64,000 bases of DNA from a virus, in the IMG/VR virus record IMGVR_UViG_3300036985_003303, positions 1 to 64,000 of that record; one strand, given 5' to 3'. The translations under genes and the position numbers were made by a program. The notes beneath the pieces were generated by a model. The model searched no databases and was not told the DNA's origin. It saw nothing but the letters and a program-made list of their open reading frames with translations. This document shows, piece by piece, positions 24,482 through 33,234 of the stretch. How positions within the stretch are numbered: the stretch's first letter is position 1; each line of letters starts with the position of its first letter.

Positions 24482-24553
24482 AGGTATAGGAGGGAGTCGA
24501 ACCCTCACACATAGCGTTGTTGCTACAGCTCTGCCAGTTGAGCTTACTATACC
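24482..24553 (-). ncRNA. tRNA-like element / pseudo-tRNA with non-canonical anticodon arm
   Basis: Acceptor GGTATAG/CTATACC, D-arm AGCTC-AACTGGCA-GAGCT, stem GTAGC/GCTAT with 6-nt loop AACAAC, T-arm GAGGG-TTCGACT-CCCTC; no CCA. Confidence 0.75.
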
Positions 24554-25592: not shown

Positions 25593-26101
25593 AATAAAAA
25601 TCTTGAGCAATCAATAGTGGATTCAAATGCATACTTCTTCCTTTGCTGGCCAATACATTCTAGATACTTTGGGGTTACGCACATTAGTATCCATAGTGCC
25701 GGTGACTGGTTACACCTTTTTTGTTTGCATGATAAGCGGGTAGTTCAAATCCCTAGGTACTTCGACACTGAGAACTATGATTGCGTCTGTTAAGAATAAA
25801 ATATGAGGGACTACCCCTCTGCACTCAGTTGTAAGTTCAATACTTCTCTATAACATGGAGATTTTGTTCCTGAGCAATTAAGCCTAACTCCTAGTATATT
25901 TTACCTACAACTGCTCACCCTTGGGAGAATGATTAAATGTTTCTGTACGTCCAACAAGCATGACTTGTGTTGTTTCTGTTTCTTAATCATTGTGGTTTCA
26001 CATCTTACATCCTTTCATGCGGTTAAACCCATGAGCCTTGTTAGCATTACAAGTTAACCTTCCTGTAAGAAGTCTTTATATCCACATGAGAATGGTGCAT
26101 T

Positions 26102-26138
26102 AAAAAATGGAAGAGCATATACGGCACCATCTCTTCCA
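26102..26138 (-). terminator. Intrinsic terminator
   Basis: TGGAAGAG/CTCTTCCA stem plus 6-nt T-run on the minus strand after the 26172 stop. Confidence 0.65.
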
Positions 26139-26171
26139 GTATAGGTTACAAGCCCGACCTAGATGCGTAGG

Positions 26172-26628: not shown

Positions 26629-26732
26629 ATAACTATATTATTATGACTAATTAGTGATTTTGAGCCTTATGCTCTTTTAAAGATTTAGGTGGGTGGTGAT
26701 CTTACTTATGCACAAAAGAACCCATTACATAT

Positions 26733-26773
26733 AAAAAATACCCTAATCTTGTTTGTGTGATGAGATTAGGGTA
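26733..26773 (-). terminator. Intrinsic terminator
   Basis: TACCCTAATCT/AGATTAGGGTA 11-bp stem plus T-run on the minus strand. Confidence 0.7.
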
Positions 26774-27059: not shown

Positions 27060-27121
27060 TTTGTGATAGTATTTAATGAATAATTAGACACTTCCCCTTC
27101 CTGATGATAGTAACTTACCAA

Positions 27122-27435
27122 TTTTTTGGGAGTGGTGTGAATGTGGGACTGTAATTTCGCGGAAGTCTGAAACGAAGAGTTTCAGCCCACGGAGTGTTGC
27201 CCGCGGCAGCGAGCCAAGGTATAGCCAGGCGCGTAGGATCTGCAAGATCCTGTTAGCCGACACCATGCATACCATGGGCTAGTAATCCCCAGGAGTCTGA
27301 ACCTGGGTTCAGCCCTCGGAGAGCAAGGGTTGCCCAACGGCAGGGCGAAGCCCTTATAAGAGTTGATCGGGAAGAAGCCCAGGCGGCAGAAACCGGAGGT
27401 TTCAATGAGCCGACACAATGCTTTTTTGGGAGTGG
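27122..27435. other. GC-rich structured non-coding island bracketed by a 14-nt direct repeat
   Basis: About 55% GC by hand count (166/300), TTTTTTGGGAGTGG at 27122 and 27422, many hairpins, internal 130-nt-period duplication. Confidence 0.7.
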
Positions 27436-27456
27436 GCGGGTGTGGTGATAGTAACC

Positions 27457-27498
27457 AAAAAAATAATGCCTGTCACTCCGAAGAGCAACAGGCGTTAT
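27457..27498 (-). terminator. cUUCGg-loop terminator followed by TTACTATCAC
   Basis: ATAATGCCTGT/ACAGGCGTTAT stem, CGAA loop on plus strand, A-run; GTGATAGTAA at 27445-27454. Confidence 0.8.
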
Positions 27499-27502
27499 CT
27501 TA

Positions 27503-28171
27503 TTATCGCTTGCGTAATTCAGCAAGCATTGCACGAGCATCAGCAACACGGTCTTCACGGTCAAGGTTACGAATGTCCCTAACTTTCAACTTGGAAGCCT
27601 TTGCAATGCGAAGCATTTCAAGGTTGTCCTTAGCCTTGTCAAGTTTCTCCAAAGCAAGCATTGCCTGAATTGGTTCGCAGAATGACTTAGCAATAGTACC
27701 ACGCGAAGGGTTTTCTTGATTGTTGTTAGGAACCAAATAAGAACCGTTTGTAGACAACAACTTGAATGAGTCTGCACCGTGGTAGTGGAACGGAACCATG
27801 TCGCCTAACTTGATTGAACCTGAAGCGAAGCAATCAGATAAAGCAAGGTCGCCTGCAATTACAACTTTCTTATCTCCGAACTCGAAGTGAAATGAGTAAC
27901 CGTCTGAATGAACAAGTTCTAAGTCCATAGTATAGACAACAGTACCGTTAAGCGCATTGCGAGGTGTAATACCATTAGCAACTAACTCAACAGGAGCGAC
28001 AGCAGGAGCTGATTCAAGACTGATAGACAAACTTGTTGCTAAAGCAATAAGAGTGTCAACGTCCATAGCTTGCAAAGACTTTTTAGTAATACTGTTAGCT
28101 TTGCAAATAGCTTTTTGAGCAAAGATTGTTTCAACAACGTCTGCTTGAGTAAATGTGGAAGTAGTTTCCAT
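27503..28171 (-). CDS. Early hypothetical protein
   Basis: 222-aa ORF with its own upstream motif and terminator. Confidence 0.75.
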   Translation of the reverse strand: METTSTFTQADVVETIFAQKAICKANSITKKSLQAMDVDTLIALATSLSISLESAPAVAPVELVANGITPRNALNGTVVYTMDLELVHSDGYSFHFEFGDKKVVIAGDLALSDCFASGSIKLGDMVPFHYHGADSFKLLSTNGSYLVPNNNQENPSRGTIAKSFCEPIQAMLALEKLDKAKDNLEMLRIAKASKLKVRDIRNLDREDRVADARAMLAELRKR

Positions 28172-28295
28172 AATAAATTTTGCGTTTTATACCCGCACGG
28201 TTTTAAAAAAGGATAACACATTTATCTGTTGGCTGTGTAGACACCAATGCTTTAGCAAACTACGAAGAGTAAGACAGCCCGTAAGGGAAAAAAGC

Positions 28296-28317
28296 ACCGA
28301 AGGGGTGAATTTACATT
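28296..28317 (-). promoter_or_regulatory. 22-nt early motif, copy 1
   Basis: Plus strand ACCGAAGGGGTGAATTTACATT. Confidence 0.6.
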
Positions 28318-28472
28318 TGAGGCTGAGTACTGGTGTGTGCGAACCGCGTAGTGCCGAAGAATGAGGCTGCTCGCGGTGAGCAAGAGAGAAAGATAGAAAG
28401 AGCGCGCGCAGCGCACCGTTTGAGTGAATGATTGGGAGCTGTTGTGAATACATTTGAGGTGGGAGTGATAGT

Positions 28473-28507
28473 AAAAAAACAGTGGTATCCCCGAAGGGAC
28501 ACCATGT
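28473..28507 (-). terminator. cUUCGg-loop terminator followed by TTACTATCAC
   Basis: TGGT-A-TCCC-CGAA-GGGA-C-ACCA; GTGATAGTAA at 28465-28474. Confidence 0.8.
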
Positions 28508-28509
28508 TA

Positions 28510-28845
28510 TCAACTGTTGAAGTGGTTGATTAGCCGTTGTGTTACTGCTCTGTGTACCATTGCGTGAACAGGACGTTCTACATTGTTGTTAATCATCACA
28601 AGAAAGTCAAACTTCATTGAACCGTCAGGAAGATATTGTTTGTTTAACATAGATACAGCAACATCTATGTTAAACACTTCTTCTAGTTCTTGTTCAACAT
28701 AATCTAATGGTCCGTTGTTGTATTCCTCGTATCTTTCTAAGTTGCACATTAGTTTATACATATCAGATGCAGCTGTTACTGTTGCAGCAATGTTTAGAAA
28801 TCTAGATGCAGCTGACCTACCGATAGTTGTTGTAATAAAATTCAT
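28510..28845 (-). CDS. Early hypothetical protein
   Basis: 111-aa ORF between motif copy 2 and a terminator. Confidence 0.7.
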   Translation of the reverse strand: MNFITTTIGRSAASRFLNIAATVTAASDMYKLMCNLERYEEYNNGPLDYVEQELEEVFNIDVAVSMLNKQYLPDGSMKFDFLVMINNNVERPVHAMVHRAVTQRLINHFNS

Positions 28846-28872
28846 AATATAAGGGTTTTAATTAATTAATAG

Positions 28873-28894
28873 ACCGCAGGGCTAGATTTACATT
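28873..28894 (-). promoter_or_regulatory. 22-nt early motif, copy 2
   Basis: Plus strand ACCGCAGGGCTAGATTTACATT, 28 nt from the 28845 ATG. Confidence 0.6.
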
Positions 28895-28927
28895 TATGCG
28901 CCTGTGTTGTGTTGAGTGATAGTAAAC

Positions 28928-28958
28928 AAAAAAAGGTAAGGGCCGAAGCCCTACCCTT
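28928..28958 (-). terminator. cUUCGg-loop terminator followed by TTACTATCAC
   Basis: AAGGTAAGGGC-CGAA-GCCCTACCCTT; GTGATAGTAA at 28916-28925. Confidence 0.8.
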
Positions 28959-29193
28959 AATATCCTTCTGCATATCTTGCATCAAACATAACTTGTGTAA
29001 CCTCTTCAGGTTCTATGTTTAGATTGAATGCAACTTCATTTACATACTCTTCATTCTCTGGGTTATCCACAGAGTTGACACCATAGGCATCACAATGTTG
29101 ATAAGTAGATTTGCAAGATGCTAATGCATACAATGCTGAGAATGTTATTATTGTCCACAAAAATAACATTCCAAATCCTGATGACTTTTTCAT
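28957..29193 (-). CDS. Putative lipoprotein (YQHCDAYG family)
   Basis: Signal peptide, LAS-C lipobox, CKSTYQHCDAYG. Confidence 0.65.
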   Translation of the reverse strand: MKKSSGFGMLFLWTIITFSALYALASCKSTYQHCDAYGVNSVDNPENEEYVNEVAFNLNIEPEEVTQVMFDARYAEGY

Positions 29194-29199
29194 AAGCTT

Positions 29200-29349
29200 T
29201 TAATTTTTTAAGTTAATTAGTTTGTTGTTTAATGGGACTACCTTGTTAAACCAATAGTCCCGTGCAATTTTGTACCAACCTTTATCCATGTAGTGTTGGT
29301 GTTTATCTAATGCATCTTGAAGTCGCATTAGAAGTTCACGATGAGTCAT
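29200..29349 (-). CDS. 49-aa early protein
   Basis: Hand-translated MTHRELLMRLQDALDKHQHYMDKGW...; packed between neighbours. Confidence 0.5.
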   Translation of the reverse strand: MTHRELLMRLQDALDKHQHYMDKGWYKIARDYWFNKVVPLNNKLINLKN

Positions 29350-29353
29350 GGCT

Positions 29354-29512
29354 TTAGTCTTTAAGAGTTAATACTAAAACAAAACCAAACACTGCAGACA
29401 TAATGCCTGCAAGAATTTGATTACTTAATTGTGGAGCTGTGAATGCCGTTACTCCAAAGGCAATTACTATTAGTGAGTTGAACGCAACCCACGTTATCTT
29501 TTCTGCTTTCAT
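29354..29512 (-). CDS. 52-aa two-TM membrane protein
   Basis: MKAEKITWVAFNSLIVIAFGVTAFTAPQLSNQILAGIMSAVFGFVLVLTLKD. Confidence 0.55.
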   Translation of the reverse strand: MKAEKITWVAFNSLIVIAFGVTAFTAPQLSNQILAGIMSAVFGFVLVLTLKD

Positions 29513-29652
29513 AAGCTTTTAATTTTAAAGACACCTAATTTATGTGTGCCTTGGTTTAACAATTGTTTTTTCTTCCACAAGCACAATGCTTTATTGTAGA
29601 AGTTGAATGACTCCACAACTGTAGAGCCATTCAAATACTGTAGCTGGTACAT
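29509..29652 (-). CDS. 47-aa early protein
   Basis: MYQLQYLNGSTVVESFNFYNKALCLWKKKQL...; overlaps both neighbours. Confidence 0.55.
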   Translation of the reverse strand: MYQLQYLNGSTVVESFNFYNKALCLWKKKQLLNQGTHKLGVFKIKSL

Positions 29653-29762
29653 TACTTCAGTCCGATTAAATCAAACATAAGTAGTGTACCTACTAACAAT
29701 ACCAAAGTAAGAGTGAGTCCTGTCCACAGAACCCACTCTTTTTGTTTTTTCAACAGTCCCAT
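29652..29762 (-). CDS. 36-aa single-TM protein
   Basis: MGLLKKQKEWVLWTGLTLTLVLLVGTLLMFDLIGLK; TAATG overlaps. Confidence 0.5.
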   Translation of the reverse strand: MGLLKKQKEWVLWTGLTLTLVLLVGTLLMFDLIGLK

Positions 29763-29932
29763 TACTTGCGTGTGCAAATTATGATTGAACCTATTGTACC
29801 CCAGCCTAAAAATGACCAGTTAGCAGCCATTAATTGGTCATTGCTATTAGCAATAAACAATCCTACTAAAGACAATGTCATCATAACTAAGCATAAGATA
29901 GTTACGACTGTTGAAAGTGTTAATCTTTTCAT
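29762..29932 (-). CDS. 56-aa two-TM membrane protein
   Basis: MKRLTLSTVVTILCLVMMTLSLVGLFIANSND...GWGTIGSIIICTRK. Confidence 0.55.
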   Translation of the reverse strand: MKRLTLSTVVTILCLVMMTLSLVGLFIANSNDQLMAANWSFLGWGTIGSIIICTRK

Positions 29933-29935
29933 AGC

Positions 29936-30106
29936 TTAGTTTTTAGAATTAAACAATGGAGAGATTATGTTAACCACCATACAAGTCAATGACAAAGTCA
30001 ATGCAGTTATGGACATAACATACTGGTCTGTTGTATCAGACTCAAGCACTTCGATAGTGCTAACGCCACTCATAACAATGAGTAGCAAAGAAAATAAATG
30101 TTTCAT
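29936..30106 (-). CDS. 56-aa hydrophobic early protein
   Basis: MKHLFSLLIVMSGVSTIEVL...; first ORF after motif copy 3. Confidence 0.5.
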   Translation of the reverse strand: MKHLFSLLLIVMSGVSTIEVLESDTTDQYVMSITALTLSLTCMVVNIISPLFNSKN

Positions 30107-30135
30107 AATAATTTTTTTTAAGGGTTTGTCATATG

Positions 30136-30157
30136 ACCGAAGGGCTAAATTTACATT
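30136..30157 (-). promoter_or_regulatory. 22-nt early motif, copy 3
   Basis: Plus strand ACCGAAGGGCTAAATTTACATT, 30 nt from the 30106 ATG. Confidence 0.6.
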
Positions 30158-30360
30158 AAGAGGTGGTCATTCTAGTTGAGTACATACAACATCTAACCAC
30201 TCCTGGTGTGTCTGTGTCTGCTTGTCAGGACATGTGCTTCCGTGTCCTGGTGTGGTGCGAGCTTGCGAGCACAGGCTCTGCTCTCCTCTGCACAGACCTC
30301 TCTCCCCTGGAACTTTTTCTTGGATCCTGTTGTGATTTTTCTTTCGGCTTGAGATTTTAT

Positions 30361-30408
30361 GGGGGGTAGCACCCTCCAGCTGATTGACGGGGGGATAAAG
30401 AACTAGGG
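30361..30408 (+). repeat. G6-N22-G6-N11-GGG motif, copy 1
   Basis: GGGGGG tagcaccctccagctgat TGAC GGGGGG ataaagaac TAGGG. Confidence 0.7.
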
Positions 30409-30500
30409 ATGTTCCCCACATCATTATACATTATATTTTTGATTTACCCACATCATAATACTCTCTGGATCCATATTACCCAAAATTTGTATTTTTGTCT

Positions 30501-30803
30501 ATGGACTATTCAAATATGTGGTGGAATGATGCTATAGAGATTCCTCTAATGGTCAAGCATATGCAGATAATAAAGCATTTTGAAAAGAAGTATGGTGTGG
30601 AAGTTAACAGAGAAATGACTTTTGTAGAATCTAAGTACATAGCAGATGCTATTACACAAATCAAATTTCTAAAAGTTCGGAAGATCATAGATACCAACAA
30701 AGCCTGTACGTTGTTTAGGCTAGTCTGCAGTACGGATCAAGAGAGTAAGCAGATGGGATTAGACCTAATGCAACAGCTCAAGGCCAAGGCTAGAAAAAAA
30801 TAA
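30501..30803 (+). CDS. Hypothetical protein with C-terminal SxDxE motif
   Basis: First plus-strand gene; TATTTTTG box at 30490-30497 immediately before the ATG. Confidence 0.65.
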   Translation: MDYSNMWWNDAIEIPLMVKHMQIIKHFEKKYGVEVNREMTFVESKYIADAITQIKFLKVRKIIDTNKACTLFRLVCSTDQESKQMGLDLMQQLKAKARKK

Positions 30804-32466: not shown

Positions 32467-32883
32467 ATGTGGATACAAGACGGAAAAGAGTTTACTGAAG
32501 AAATGATTCCAGAAGGAGCAGTCGGTTTTATATATGAAATGATGGCAATCATTGATGGGAAATCGGTTAGATACATTGGTAAGAAGAACTTCTATGCTGA
32601 TGTCAAAACTAAACTGGCTAAGAAAGATATTCCTACAGACAAAAGGTTGAAGACTTACAAACGTGTGAGAAAAACAACCTACAAAAACTATTTCAGTAGC
32701 AATGATGTCTTAAAACAAGCGCACAAAGATGGAGTAGTTATCCGCAGAGAGATATTGCAGATCTGCTTTGGCAAGCAGGAGTTGTCTTACTTTGAATGTA
32801 AGTTTCAATTTGGCTGGGGTGTACTTGAGAGTGATGAGTTTTTGAATGGTAATATATTGGGTAAATTTTATAAACTAAAATAA
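32467..32883 (+). CDS. GIY-YIG-like nuclease
   Basis: GFIY...YIGKK...YFSS...REIL...E...N pattern. Confidence 0.7.
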   Translation: MWIQDGKEFTEEMIPEGAVGFIYEMMAIIDGKSVRYIGKKNFYADVKTKLAKKDIPTDKRLKTYKRVRKTTYKNYFSSNDVLKQAHKDGVVIRREILQICFGKQELSYFECKFQFGWGVLESDEFLNGNILGKFYKLK

Positions 32884-33234
32884 ATGAAAAAAGAAACAAA
32901 GGACATGGGAGAAATCTCTGATGGCTACCACACATTTAATGAGTTGTATGCTTTTCGCAAAATGTACAATGCTGCGGCATTTAATGCTTGGGCTAAAGAA
33001 GGTCTTTATGATGTTCATAAATCCAAATGTCATAGTGATGGACTACCGTGCTTTGGTGGCGGATGGTTTATTGTCATGGCTGTATTGCCAGGTGGACAAG
33101 TAAGTAATCACTATCAATTAGAAGATTGGGATTTGTTCCAGTGTATAGAAGAACCATTTGTGAAATATCACTATGATGGCCATAGTGCGCAAGATGTGTT
33201 GGATCGTTTAGAAGAAGTTTGTAAAATCAATTAA
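32884..33234 (+). CDS. Conserved phage protein (SDGYHTF...DGH type)
   Basis: ISDGYHTFNELY, HSDG, GWFIV, GQVSNHY, WDLF, YDGH. Confidence 0.6.
   Translation: MKKETKDMGEISDGYHTFNELYAFRKMYNAAAFNAWAKEGLYDVHKSKCHSDGLPCFGGGWFIVMAVLPGGQVSNHYQLEDWDLFQCIEEPFVKYHYDGHSAQDVLDRLEEVCKIN

Follow-up and report, generated by a model that had tools for sequence, protein, structure and literature searches.

Among the viruses of Bacteroidota, crAss-like phages rank with the most abundant. We analysed the early region of one such phage, and in particular a 22-nt motif, ACCGMAGGGSTRRATTTACATT, that stands at the head of three small leftward cassettes; the window, that is the whole stretch of DNA analysed, is the first 64 kb (64,000 nt) of the 117,346-bp viral record IMGVR_UViG_3300036985_003303, which is 98% complete. 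Several described systems invite comparison. Early transcription in phage phi14:2 is carried out by an RNA polymerase (RNAP) of the crAss type, gp66 (10.1101/2020.03.07.982082). In Thermus phage P23-45, the two-barrel virion RNAP gp96 uses a strongly conserved AT-rich promoter at the first-entering genes (10.1101/2022.12.01.518664). The early promoters of coliphage N4 are hairpins with 5-7-bp stems and a 3-nt loop, and its virion enzyme is a T7-like single-subunit polymerase (PMC4496689). Finally, the PeSL cassettes of T4-type phages are joined by a terminator and an early promoter in a hypervariable region, where shuffling is bounded by repeats, and their promoters are identical to the host sigma-70 consensus (PMC2839356, PMC4122927).

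The motif had exactly three matches at up to three mismatches (28296, 28873 and 30136, all as plus-strand ACCGMAGGGSTRRATTTACATT) and none in 100 shuffles, so the three copies reported by a first-pass annotation of this DNA were recovered. In the whole record the motif was confined to the same three sites, even at 2-3 mismatches. All three copies share one strand, which is the gene orientation for leftward genes. The first-pass annotation had also placed two of them 28-30 nt from minus-strand ATGs, and the measured gaps (29 and 27 nt, with 124 nt for the third) bear this out. Similarity between the copies ends at the motif edges, the flanks being unrelated.

30136 to 30157, minus strand: motif copy 3, heading unit 1 at the divergent junction, 29 nt before the ATG at 30106.
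28873 to 28894, minus strand: motif copy 2, 27 nt before the ATG at 28845.
28296 to 28317, minus strand: motif copy 1, 124 nt before the ATG at 28171.

We propose that the minus strand here would carry three early transcription units, complete in themselves, each starting at a phage-specific signal (a TAAAYYYA core with a short dyad directly downstream, here the 22-nt motif) and each ending at a canonical intrinsic terminator. The signal would be a promoter unread by the host primary sigma factor, and its best candidate reader would be an injected 4054-aa two-barrel polymerase with a DFDID motif. A second sequence, TTACTATCAC, would be a separate and more deeply conserved box, located between a terminator and the next start signal and also twice before the first replication-arm gene; its repeats, like other joints, may serve as homologies for the gain, loss and reordering of cassettes. 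We put forward the core of this proposal (three early units, a phage-specific promoter not read by the host primary sigma factor, and an injected RNAP as best candidate reader) tentatively, at somewhat less than an even chance.

Genes lie on the minus strand left of ~30.15 kb and on the plus strand right of ~30.4 kb. Read in gene direction, the junction spacer leads to motif 3, about seven tiny open reading frames (ORFs) and a terminator (unit 1). A box and 21 nt then precede motif 2, a 111-aa gene and a terminator (unit 2). The next box is separated by a 147-nt GC-rich spacer from motif 1, which is followed by a 124-nt leader, a 222-aa gene (p222) and a terminator (unit 3). After unit 3 come a box, a 330-nt GC-rich island, two more boxes, a 66-aa gene and the replication arm.

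30158 to 30400, minus strand: junction spacer, GC/CA-rich, upstream of motif copy 3.
28957 to 30106, minus strand: unit 1 operon, about seven small ORFs of 56, 56, 41 (doubtful), 47, 52, 49 and 78 aa, with no family match.
28932 to 28958, minus strand: terminator 1, with a 10-bp stem, a cUUCGg loop and a T run.
28916 to 28925, minus strand: box after terminator 1, one edge of a 451-bp cassette indel.
28510 to 28845, minus strand: unit 2 gene, 111 aa, with no family match.
28483 to 28504, minus strand: terminator 2, with a 9-bp stem, a cUUCGg loop and a T run.
28465 to 28474, minus strand: box after terminator 2, the other edge of the 451-bp indel.
28318 to 28464, minus strand: GC-rich spacer with conserved sub-elements X and Y.
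28172 to 28295, minus strand: leader of the 222-aa gene, conserved and structured, with several small UNCG-type hairpins.
27503 to 28171, minus strand: unit 3 gene, 222 aa (p222), family unassigned.
27468 to 27493, minus strand: terminator 3, with an 11-bp stem, a cUUCGg loop and a T run.
27445 to 27454, minus strand: box after terminator 3.
27114 to 27444, minus strand: GC-rich island, tandem structured modules of hairpins with UNCG-type loops.
27063 to 27113, minus strand: two near-copy boxes, TTACTATCAT (27113-27104) and ATACTATCAC (27072-27063), 41 nt apart, without terminators.

This anatomy, with its copy numbers and orientations, is directly observed. The three cUUCGg terminators announced by the first-pass annotation were all present on the minus strand and have the features of intrinsic terminators: stems of 9-11 bp close UUCG loops, tails of T7-T9 follow, and all three come after a stop codon in the direction of the genes; as had also been stated, each is followed by an exact box, 0-13 nt past its tail (27445, 28465 and 28916). 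Because each motif follows a strong terminator or the divergent junction and precedes the next start codon, the units need start signals of their own. Independent early units most likely begin at the motif, which is probably a promoter of some kind.

Relatives were gathered by a pattern scan and by protein-anchored searches; L009 and L020 were chance pattern matches and were discarded. In clade A, to which the window belongs, p222 is ~88% identical in L010/L011/L014/L018 and 61% identical in L008/L019/L015, and the relatives keep the motif at two homologous sites, two per genome. In clade B (L021, L025/L026), the two homologous sites carry TATCCTAAACTTAAA followed by AAAATCT-CAAG-AGATTTT or AAAGTCA-CAAG-TGACTTT. 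Clade C (L028/L029), found via the 111-aa protein, has a three-unit layout with ACATAAATTTAAATGA-CAAG-TCATTT, ACATAAATGCAAATGA-CAAG-TCATTT and ACATAAATTTAAACGG-CAAG-CCTTAT, exactly three signals per record, and the clade B and C signals are confined to those sites within their records. When ten instances were aligned (clade A supplied five, taken from the window and L019, clade B two and clade C three), TAAA..A was invariant in all ten and the dyad arms varied in pairs, the layout common to the clades being a TAAAYYYA core plus a short dyad. Absence of the motif from relatives had been named as a reason to abandon the promoter idea; it is directly seen that the motif is kept within its clade and that analogous signals occupy the same sites in the sister clades.

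Promoters of the primary sigma factor in Bacteroidota are said, after Bayley et al. in 2000, to consist of a -33 TTTG and a -7 TAnnTTTG. Eight sense-oriented TAnnTTTG boxes, mostly TATATTTG, were found in plus-strand intergenic gaps before operons, two of them directly at the junction (30434 and 30490), and these host-type late boxes are the same across clades, whereas the early signals are wholly different. Every canonical box in the genome ends in a final G, which is absent from the motif cores (TAAATTTA, TAAATCTA or TAAATTCA). These have no TTTG at -33 either, and the three motifs show neither a -7 TAnnTTTG nor a -33 TTTG ~19-21 nt upstream of one. The claim that the motif differs from TAnnTTTG thus stands, as host boxes are used elsewhere and not at cassette heads: the sole TAnnTTTG box of the minus-strand early region (29679-29672) lies within unit 1. 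Two further features belong here.

29672 to 29740, minus strand: hairpin (29740-29709) and host-type promoter inside unit 1, the latter made of TTTG, 21 nt and TATGTTTG at 29679-29672.
30412 to 30497, plus strand: rightward flank of the junction, where a host-type TATTTTTG box (30434 and 30490) comes after each of two TTMCCCACATCATWATAC repeats.

The TTMCCCACATCATWATAC repeats are 18 nt each and 32 nt apart, and the TTMCCCACATCATWATAC/TATTTTTG pairs may serve the rightward operon as a tandem of host-type promoters whose repeats resemble operators.

The motif could also be a non-canonical promoter of the host RNAP, with TAAAYYYA as a weak -7 box and the dyad as the operator of a clade-specific phage regulator that shuts off the early units. 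TAAA..A, the sole part common to the three clades, indeed fits 4-5 of the 6 fixed TAnnTTTG positions, and the clade B and C dyads are 14-18-bp palindromes, a classical operator size, over the expected start site; moreover, the early operon of crAss001 encodes a transcriptional regulator (PMC8375218). However, the -33 TTTG is lacking at the right spacing, together with the final G, and a family search of the cassette genes detected no DNA-binding family. The dyad arms, in addition, vary within one genome (ATCT/AGAT vs GTCA/TGAC), which fits a structural constraint better than the half-site of one protein. We hold a host promoter with its operator to be improbable.

The preferred reading, a phage-specific promoter served by an injected enzyme, requires a suitable polymerase. 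The phage is crAss-like: its terminase, portal and major capsid protein match crAss-type PHROGs, and the best GenBank matches of the terminase are crAss-like Flavobacterium and Bacteroides phages (~25% identity). The early region itself had no blastn match among GenBank phages. A 4054-aa ORF (G000 91708-103872) carries DFDID at residue 2371, which fits the DFDxD catalytic motif (I/V at position 4), and in tblastn the DFDID stretch matched the RNAPs of IAS virus, cr85_1, a Cellulophaga phage and others with E 1e-7 to 1e-10. The giant ORFs had no matches among PHROG and PDB sequences, the RNAP being recognised by motif and tblastn alone. Because of the DFDID and the matches to annotated RNAPs, the prediction that this genome encodes a crAss-type two-barrel polymerase holds, in keeping with the premise of the first-pass annotation. 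That this polymerase, once injected, reads the motif is plausible, though we lean slightly towards doubt.

Co-variation between signal and polymerase is compatible with their co-evolution. The polymerase is 92-95% identical within clade A and 56-58% identical to clade C; for the portal, identity to clades B and C is 95% and 90%, and for the major capsid protein 99% and 97%. This co-variation may only reflect two fast-evolving modules, since neighbouring cargo and early genes are equally diverged. Along the genome, G000 compared with its close relatives G005/G007 shows a steep gradient of identity, from 88-99% in the head genes to 25-62% in the tail-distal, cargo and polymerase genes, with early and replication genes 32-86% identical or replaced.

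The dyad next to the core had been described as a C-GNA-G triloop, a template-strand hairpin of the N4 type, and this part of the earlier claim found no support. In clade A, the template-strand C-GNA-G loop is closed by two C-G pairs, followed by an A.G mismatch and then 1-3 pairs. One position pair co-varies (C:G vs G:C); folded as DNA the hairpin reaches -0.3 to -3.3 kcal/mol, and folded as sense RNA -1.5 to -4 kcal/mol, in both cases no better than shuffles. In clades B and C, AT-rich dyads of 6-7 bp enclose a constant 4-nt loop, CAAG, and in these clades, as in copy 1 of the window, the hairpin is followed by a T run. No 5-7-bp stem with a 3-nt purine-centred loop was seen, and the predicted reader is of the DFDID two-barrel type, not a T7-like single-subunit virion RNAP. 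Because the clade A hairpin is negligible and the clade B and C dyads differ in the loop, the N4 analogy can serve at most as a "works like" lead.

The idea of phage early promoters thus fares unevenly: a non-host motif that is kept or replaced in relatives and an encoded RNAP speak for it, and the N4-like hairpin is marginal. We infer promoter function, polymerase identity and timing from the arrangement just described, and several points weigh against the reading as a whole. The evidence is from sequence only, and the phage is uncultured. The clade A hairpin is thermodynamically negligible on either strand. Cross-clade conservation is limited to a -7-like AT core, possibly usable by the host enzyme, and the clade B and C dyads also resemble the operator of a dimeric repressor. 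Between clades, cargo neighbours are 45-62% and early genes 32-86% identical, so that the divergence of the polymerase is not specific. Upstream of the motifs lie conserved spacers, in part structured and with compensatory changes, which would fit a start further upstream, for example at the box. Lastly, the early transcripts of phi14:2 showed no common upstream motif (10.1101/2020.03.07.982082).

The box, TTACTATCAC, reads GTGATAGTAA on the plus strand and has four exact matches against 0.10 expected; besides the three that follow terminators, the fourth (9723) lies within coding sequence. Across clades the box, as TTACTATCA[CT], is invariant, always sense-oriented, and followed by C/A-rich sequence. 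The near-copies TTACTATCAT and ATACTATCAC, missed by the earlier reader, directly precede the 66-aa gene (27059-26859), and both are kept in clades B and C and in L014/L018, L019 keeping the first only. We rejected the box as a part of the terminator, as it lies 11-60 nt beyond the T run in relatives and is also found without a hairpin, and we rejected box and motif as a single bipartite promoter, as their spacing ranges from 31 to 159 nt. With such variable distances and terminator-less copies, the box is separate from both terminator and motif. Reading the plus-strand box as three in-frame stops (TGA-TAG-TAA) was also discarded, no consistent plus-strand ORF ending there. The box could serve as promoter or start of spacer RNAs, bind a protein or be a place of processing. 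In the next intergenic gap (26700-26740), another terminator (26730-26690 region) is followed by a degenerate box-like sequence, TAAGATCACCACCCACC.

Nowhere in the genome is GC content higher than in the three spacers between motif and box (~50% vs 34%). In the junction spacer, blocks conserved across clades include CCCCCCG..., GGTGYTACCCCCC and GATCCAAG. Upstream of motif 1, element X (28382-28433) combines an alternating-GC dyad with a polypyrimidine tract and is common to clade C, where p222 is 32% identical; element Y (28340-28379) is a stem-loop with a conserved loop and a 6-bp outer stem that shows compensatory changes between clades A and B. Elements X and Y are reused in different units in different clades, and both types are prone to non-B DNA. 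The leader of p222 is 97% identical to that of L018, against ~91% for the coding DNA. In the island, the modules are kept in all clades, including a relative with p222 only 46% identical. An island module is made of H1 (UNCG-type loop), GCCGNNNGGGCAAC, CUCCGNGGGCU-H2(CUGAACC/GGUUCAG)-ACUCC and a box-like UUAGUAGCCCAU, with a fold z-score of about -3. Rfam returned nothing for 27400-30520 at E<=1 and nothing credible for the GC island. A resemblance to GCCGGCUGGGCAAC had raised the reading of the island as a hepatitis delta virus-like ribozyme, which was dropped for want of a model match and of fitting helices.

Loops of the UNCG type occur throughout and suggest that RNA is produced from this region in the sense orientation, which recalls the abundant early non-coding RNAs of phi14:2. 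These loops are also the main argument for a second alternative, in which the motif acts in RNA as a linear box plus hairpin (nut-like antitermination, processing or attenuation) within transcripts started at TTACTATCAC or at the junction. In lambda, boxA and boxB form such a linear box and hairpin, and a conserved linear box with a clade-specific hairpin before strong terminators resembles that layout; the conserved, partly structured box-to-motif spacers, the T run after the hairpin in clades B and C and in copy 1, and the invariant sense-oriented box with its C/A-rich sequence would agree with it. However, unit 1 has no upstream box, and no promoter was found upstream of it; the clade A sense-RNA hairpins stay at the level of shuffles, the box-to-motif distance is loose (31-159 nt), and the presence of a new copy after each of three strong terminators suggests re-initiation more than read-through. 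A role in RNA is thus rather unlikely. A TROVE domain, an idea taken from the TROVE/Y-RNA of crAss001, was not found in the neighbouring ORFs.

The cassettes themselves vary. Box, 21 nt, motif 2, the 111-aa gene and the terminator together make up a 451-bp unit that is present in the window phage and in clade C, and absent from L010/L011/L014 and L008/L019 of clade A and from clade B. Compared with L014/L018, it forms a 451-bp indel bounded exactly on both sides by a 13-nt repeat, TTTACTATCACTC. The small-gene operon is a mosaic whose content and order vary between relatives. An exact 20-nt repeat (AAAATTAAAAGCTT-ATGAAA in gene orientation) stands at two small-gene starts (29188-29207 and 29507-29526), and AACCCTTAAAAAAA before the first genes in all clades is a further standard joint. 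The earlier suggestion of recombinational shuffling, to be examined by comparing strains, is thereby strengthened: content differs between strains, and one indel is edged by the box repeat. That the standard-joint repeats act as short homologies for the gain, loss and reordering of cassettes is supported by these comparisons of sequence. The 111-aa protein is 77% identical to that of clade C; a recent transfer of its cassette was considered and is not shown, as p60 matches this value at 75%. An origin of the repeats without any regulatory role, as leftovers of a recent cassette duplication or mere recombination joints, would agree with the 13-nt TTTACTATCACTC edges and the mosaic operon but is hardly credible, as the similarity of the copies stops at the motif edges and three clades that differ in sequence retain the position, orientation and architecture.

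The unit 1 ORFs are mostly hydrophobic, the final one being lipoprotein-like. The model of p222, which has 19 homologues, reaches a predicted local distance difference test score (pLDDT) of 87: helices at the N-terminus are followed by a small beta-barrel and then by a long helical hairpin at the C-terminus. The only fold matches of the barrel are weak ones to nucleic-acid-binding domains of the OB/S1 type (Foldseek E ~1e-2, VIA Z <= 4.6). Just right of the junction (32467-33234) are genes for a SegE-like GIY-YIG endonuclease (E 1e-17) and a WDGH-domain protein (E 3.5e-35). Further left, the one Rfam match in the window is to a transfer RNA (tRNA) model, at 24482-24553 on the minus strand (42.8 bits), in an ORF-dense stretch where ARAGORN makes no call. 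An ORF-free 487-nt gap (25685-26171), in which no tRNA was called, contains a stretch that resembles a tRNA T arm in reverse complement (GGGATTTGAAC...).

A bolder version of the injected-polymerase reading would make TAAAYYYA plus dyad the promoter of the injected crAss-type RNAP, its clade-private forms natural switches of specificity, and the GC-rich spacers supercoil-responsive elements that expose single-stranded DNA template. We regard this as speculative and more doubtful than the simpler proposal. If it were true, versions A, B and C would co-vary with the polymerase (56-58% identical to clade C) in phages whose head genes are 90-97% identical, and the alternating GC and CA tracts, the polypurine tract and the cruciform-capable dyads of the spacers would suit an enzyme known to prefer single-stranded DNA. 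We found no definition of a crAss-type early promoter in the literature. The finding is a short, clade-private candidate signal at the head of the first units, with three natural variants at identical positions in near-identical phages, and these variants give a concrete set of templates for in vitro transcription and 5'-end mapping. Its value is tempered by its being a single locus of an uncultured phage, known through genome data.

The concept itself is already known from PeSL, N4 and P23-45, and the locus shares something with each of the systems compared. With promoters of the Bacteroidota primary sigma factor it has in common an AT-rich core, TAAAYYYA, that resembles the -7 box, but not the final G or the -33 element. 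Like N4 with P1-P3, it has about three near-identical copies where the early region begins, in a phage with a polymerase of its own that is injected in N4 and putatively so here (PMC4496689), with dyad symmetry beside the start and, in clade A, a possible C-GNA-G loop on the template strand; unlike in N4, the enzyme is of the unrelated two-barrel DFDID type, and clade A has two base pairs and a mismatch in its stem, while clades B and C have 6-7-bp stems around a 4-nt loop. As in P23-45, relatives with the enzyme keep the motif (10.1101/2022.12.01.518664), but there the start sites are experimentally mapped and here the motif is read from genomes; the two motifs are of unrelated sequence, and P23-45 has its enzyme as a fusion with the tape measure protein. 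With phi14:2 it shares the polymerase family and early genes beside long non-coding intergenic regions, which are transcribed in phi14:2 (10.1101/2020.03.07.982082), whereas the clear common motif seen here was not detected in that phage. Compared with PeSL cassettes, the start signal here is putative, departs from the host primary-sigma consensus and is private to each clade, and the locus has an extra invariant TTACTATCAC box and long conserved spacers. In both cases, repeated composite joints surround small early genes without family match, terminators and a repeated signal (here a putative promoter) lie between them, and indels between close relatives are bounded by repeats, here the 451-bp indel with its TTTACTATCACTC edges. 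All together, "standard joint" shuffling of the PeSL style, known from T4-like phages, appears to operate in a crAss-like early region.

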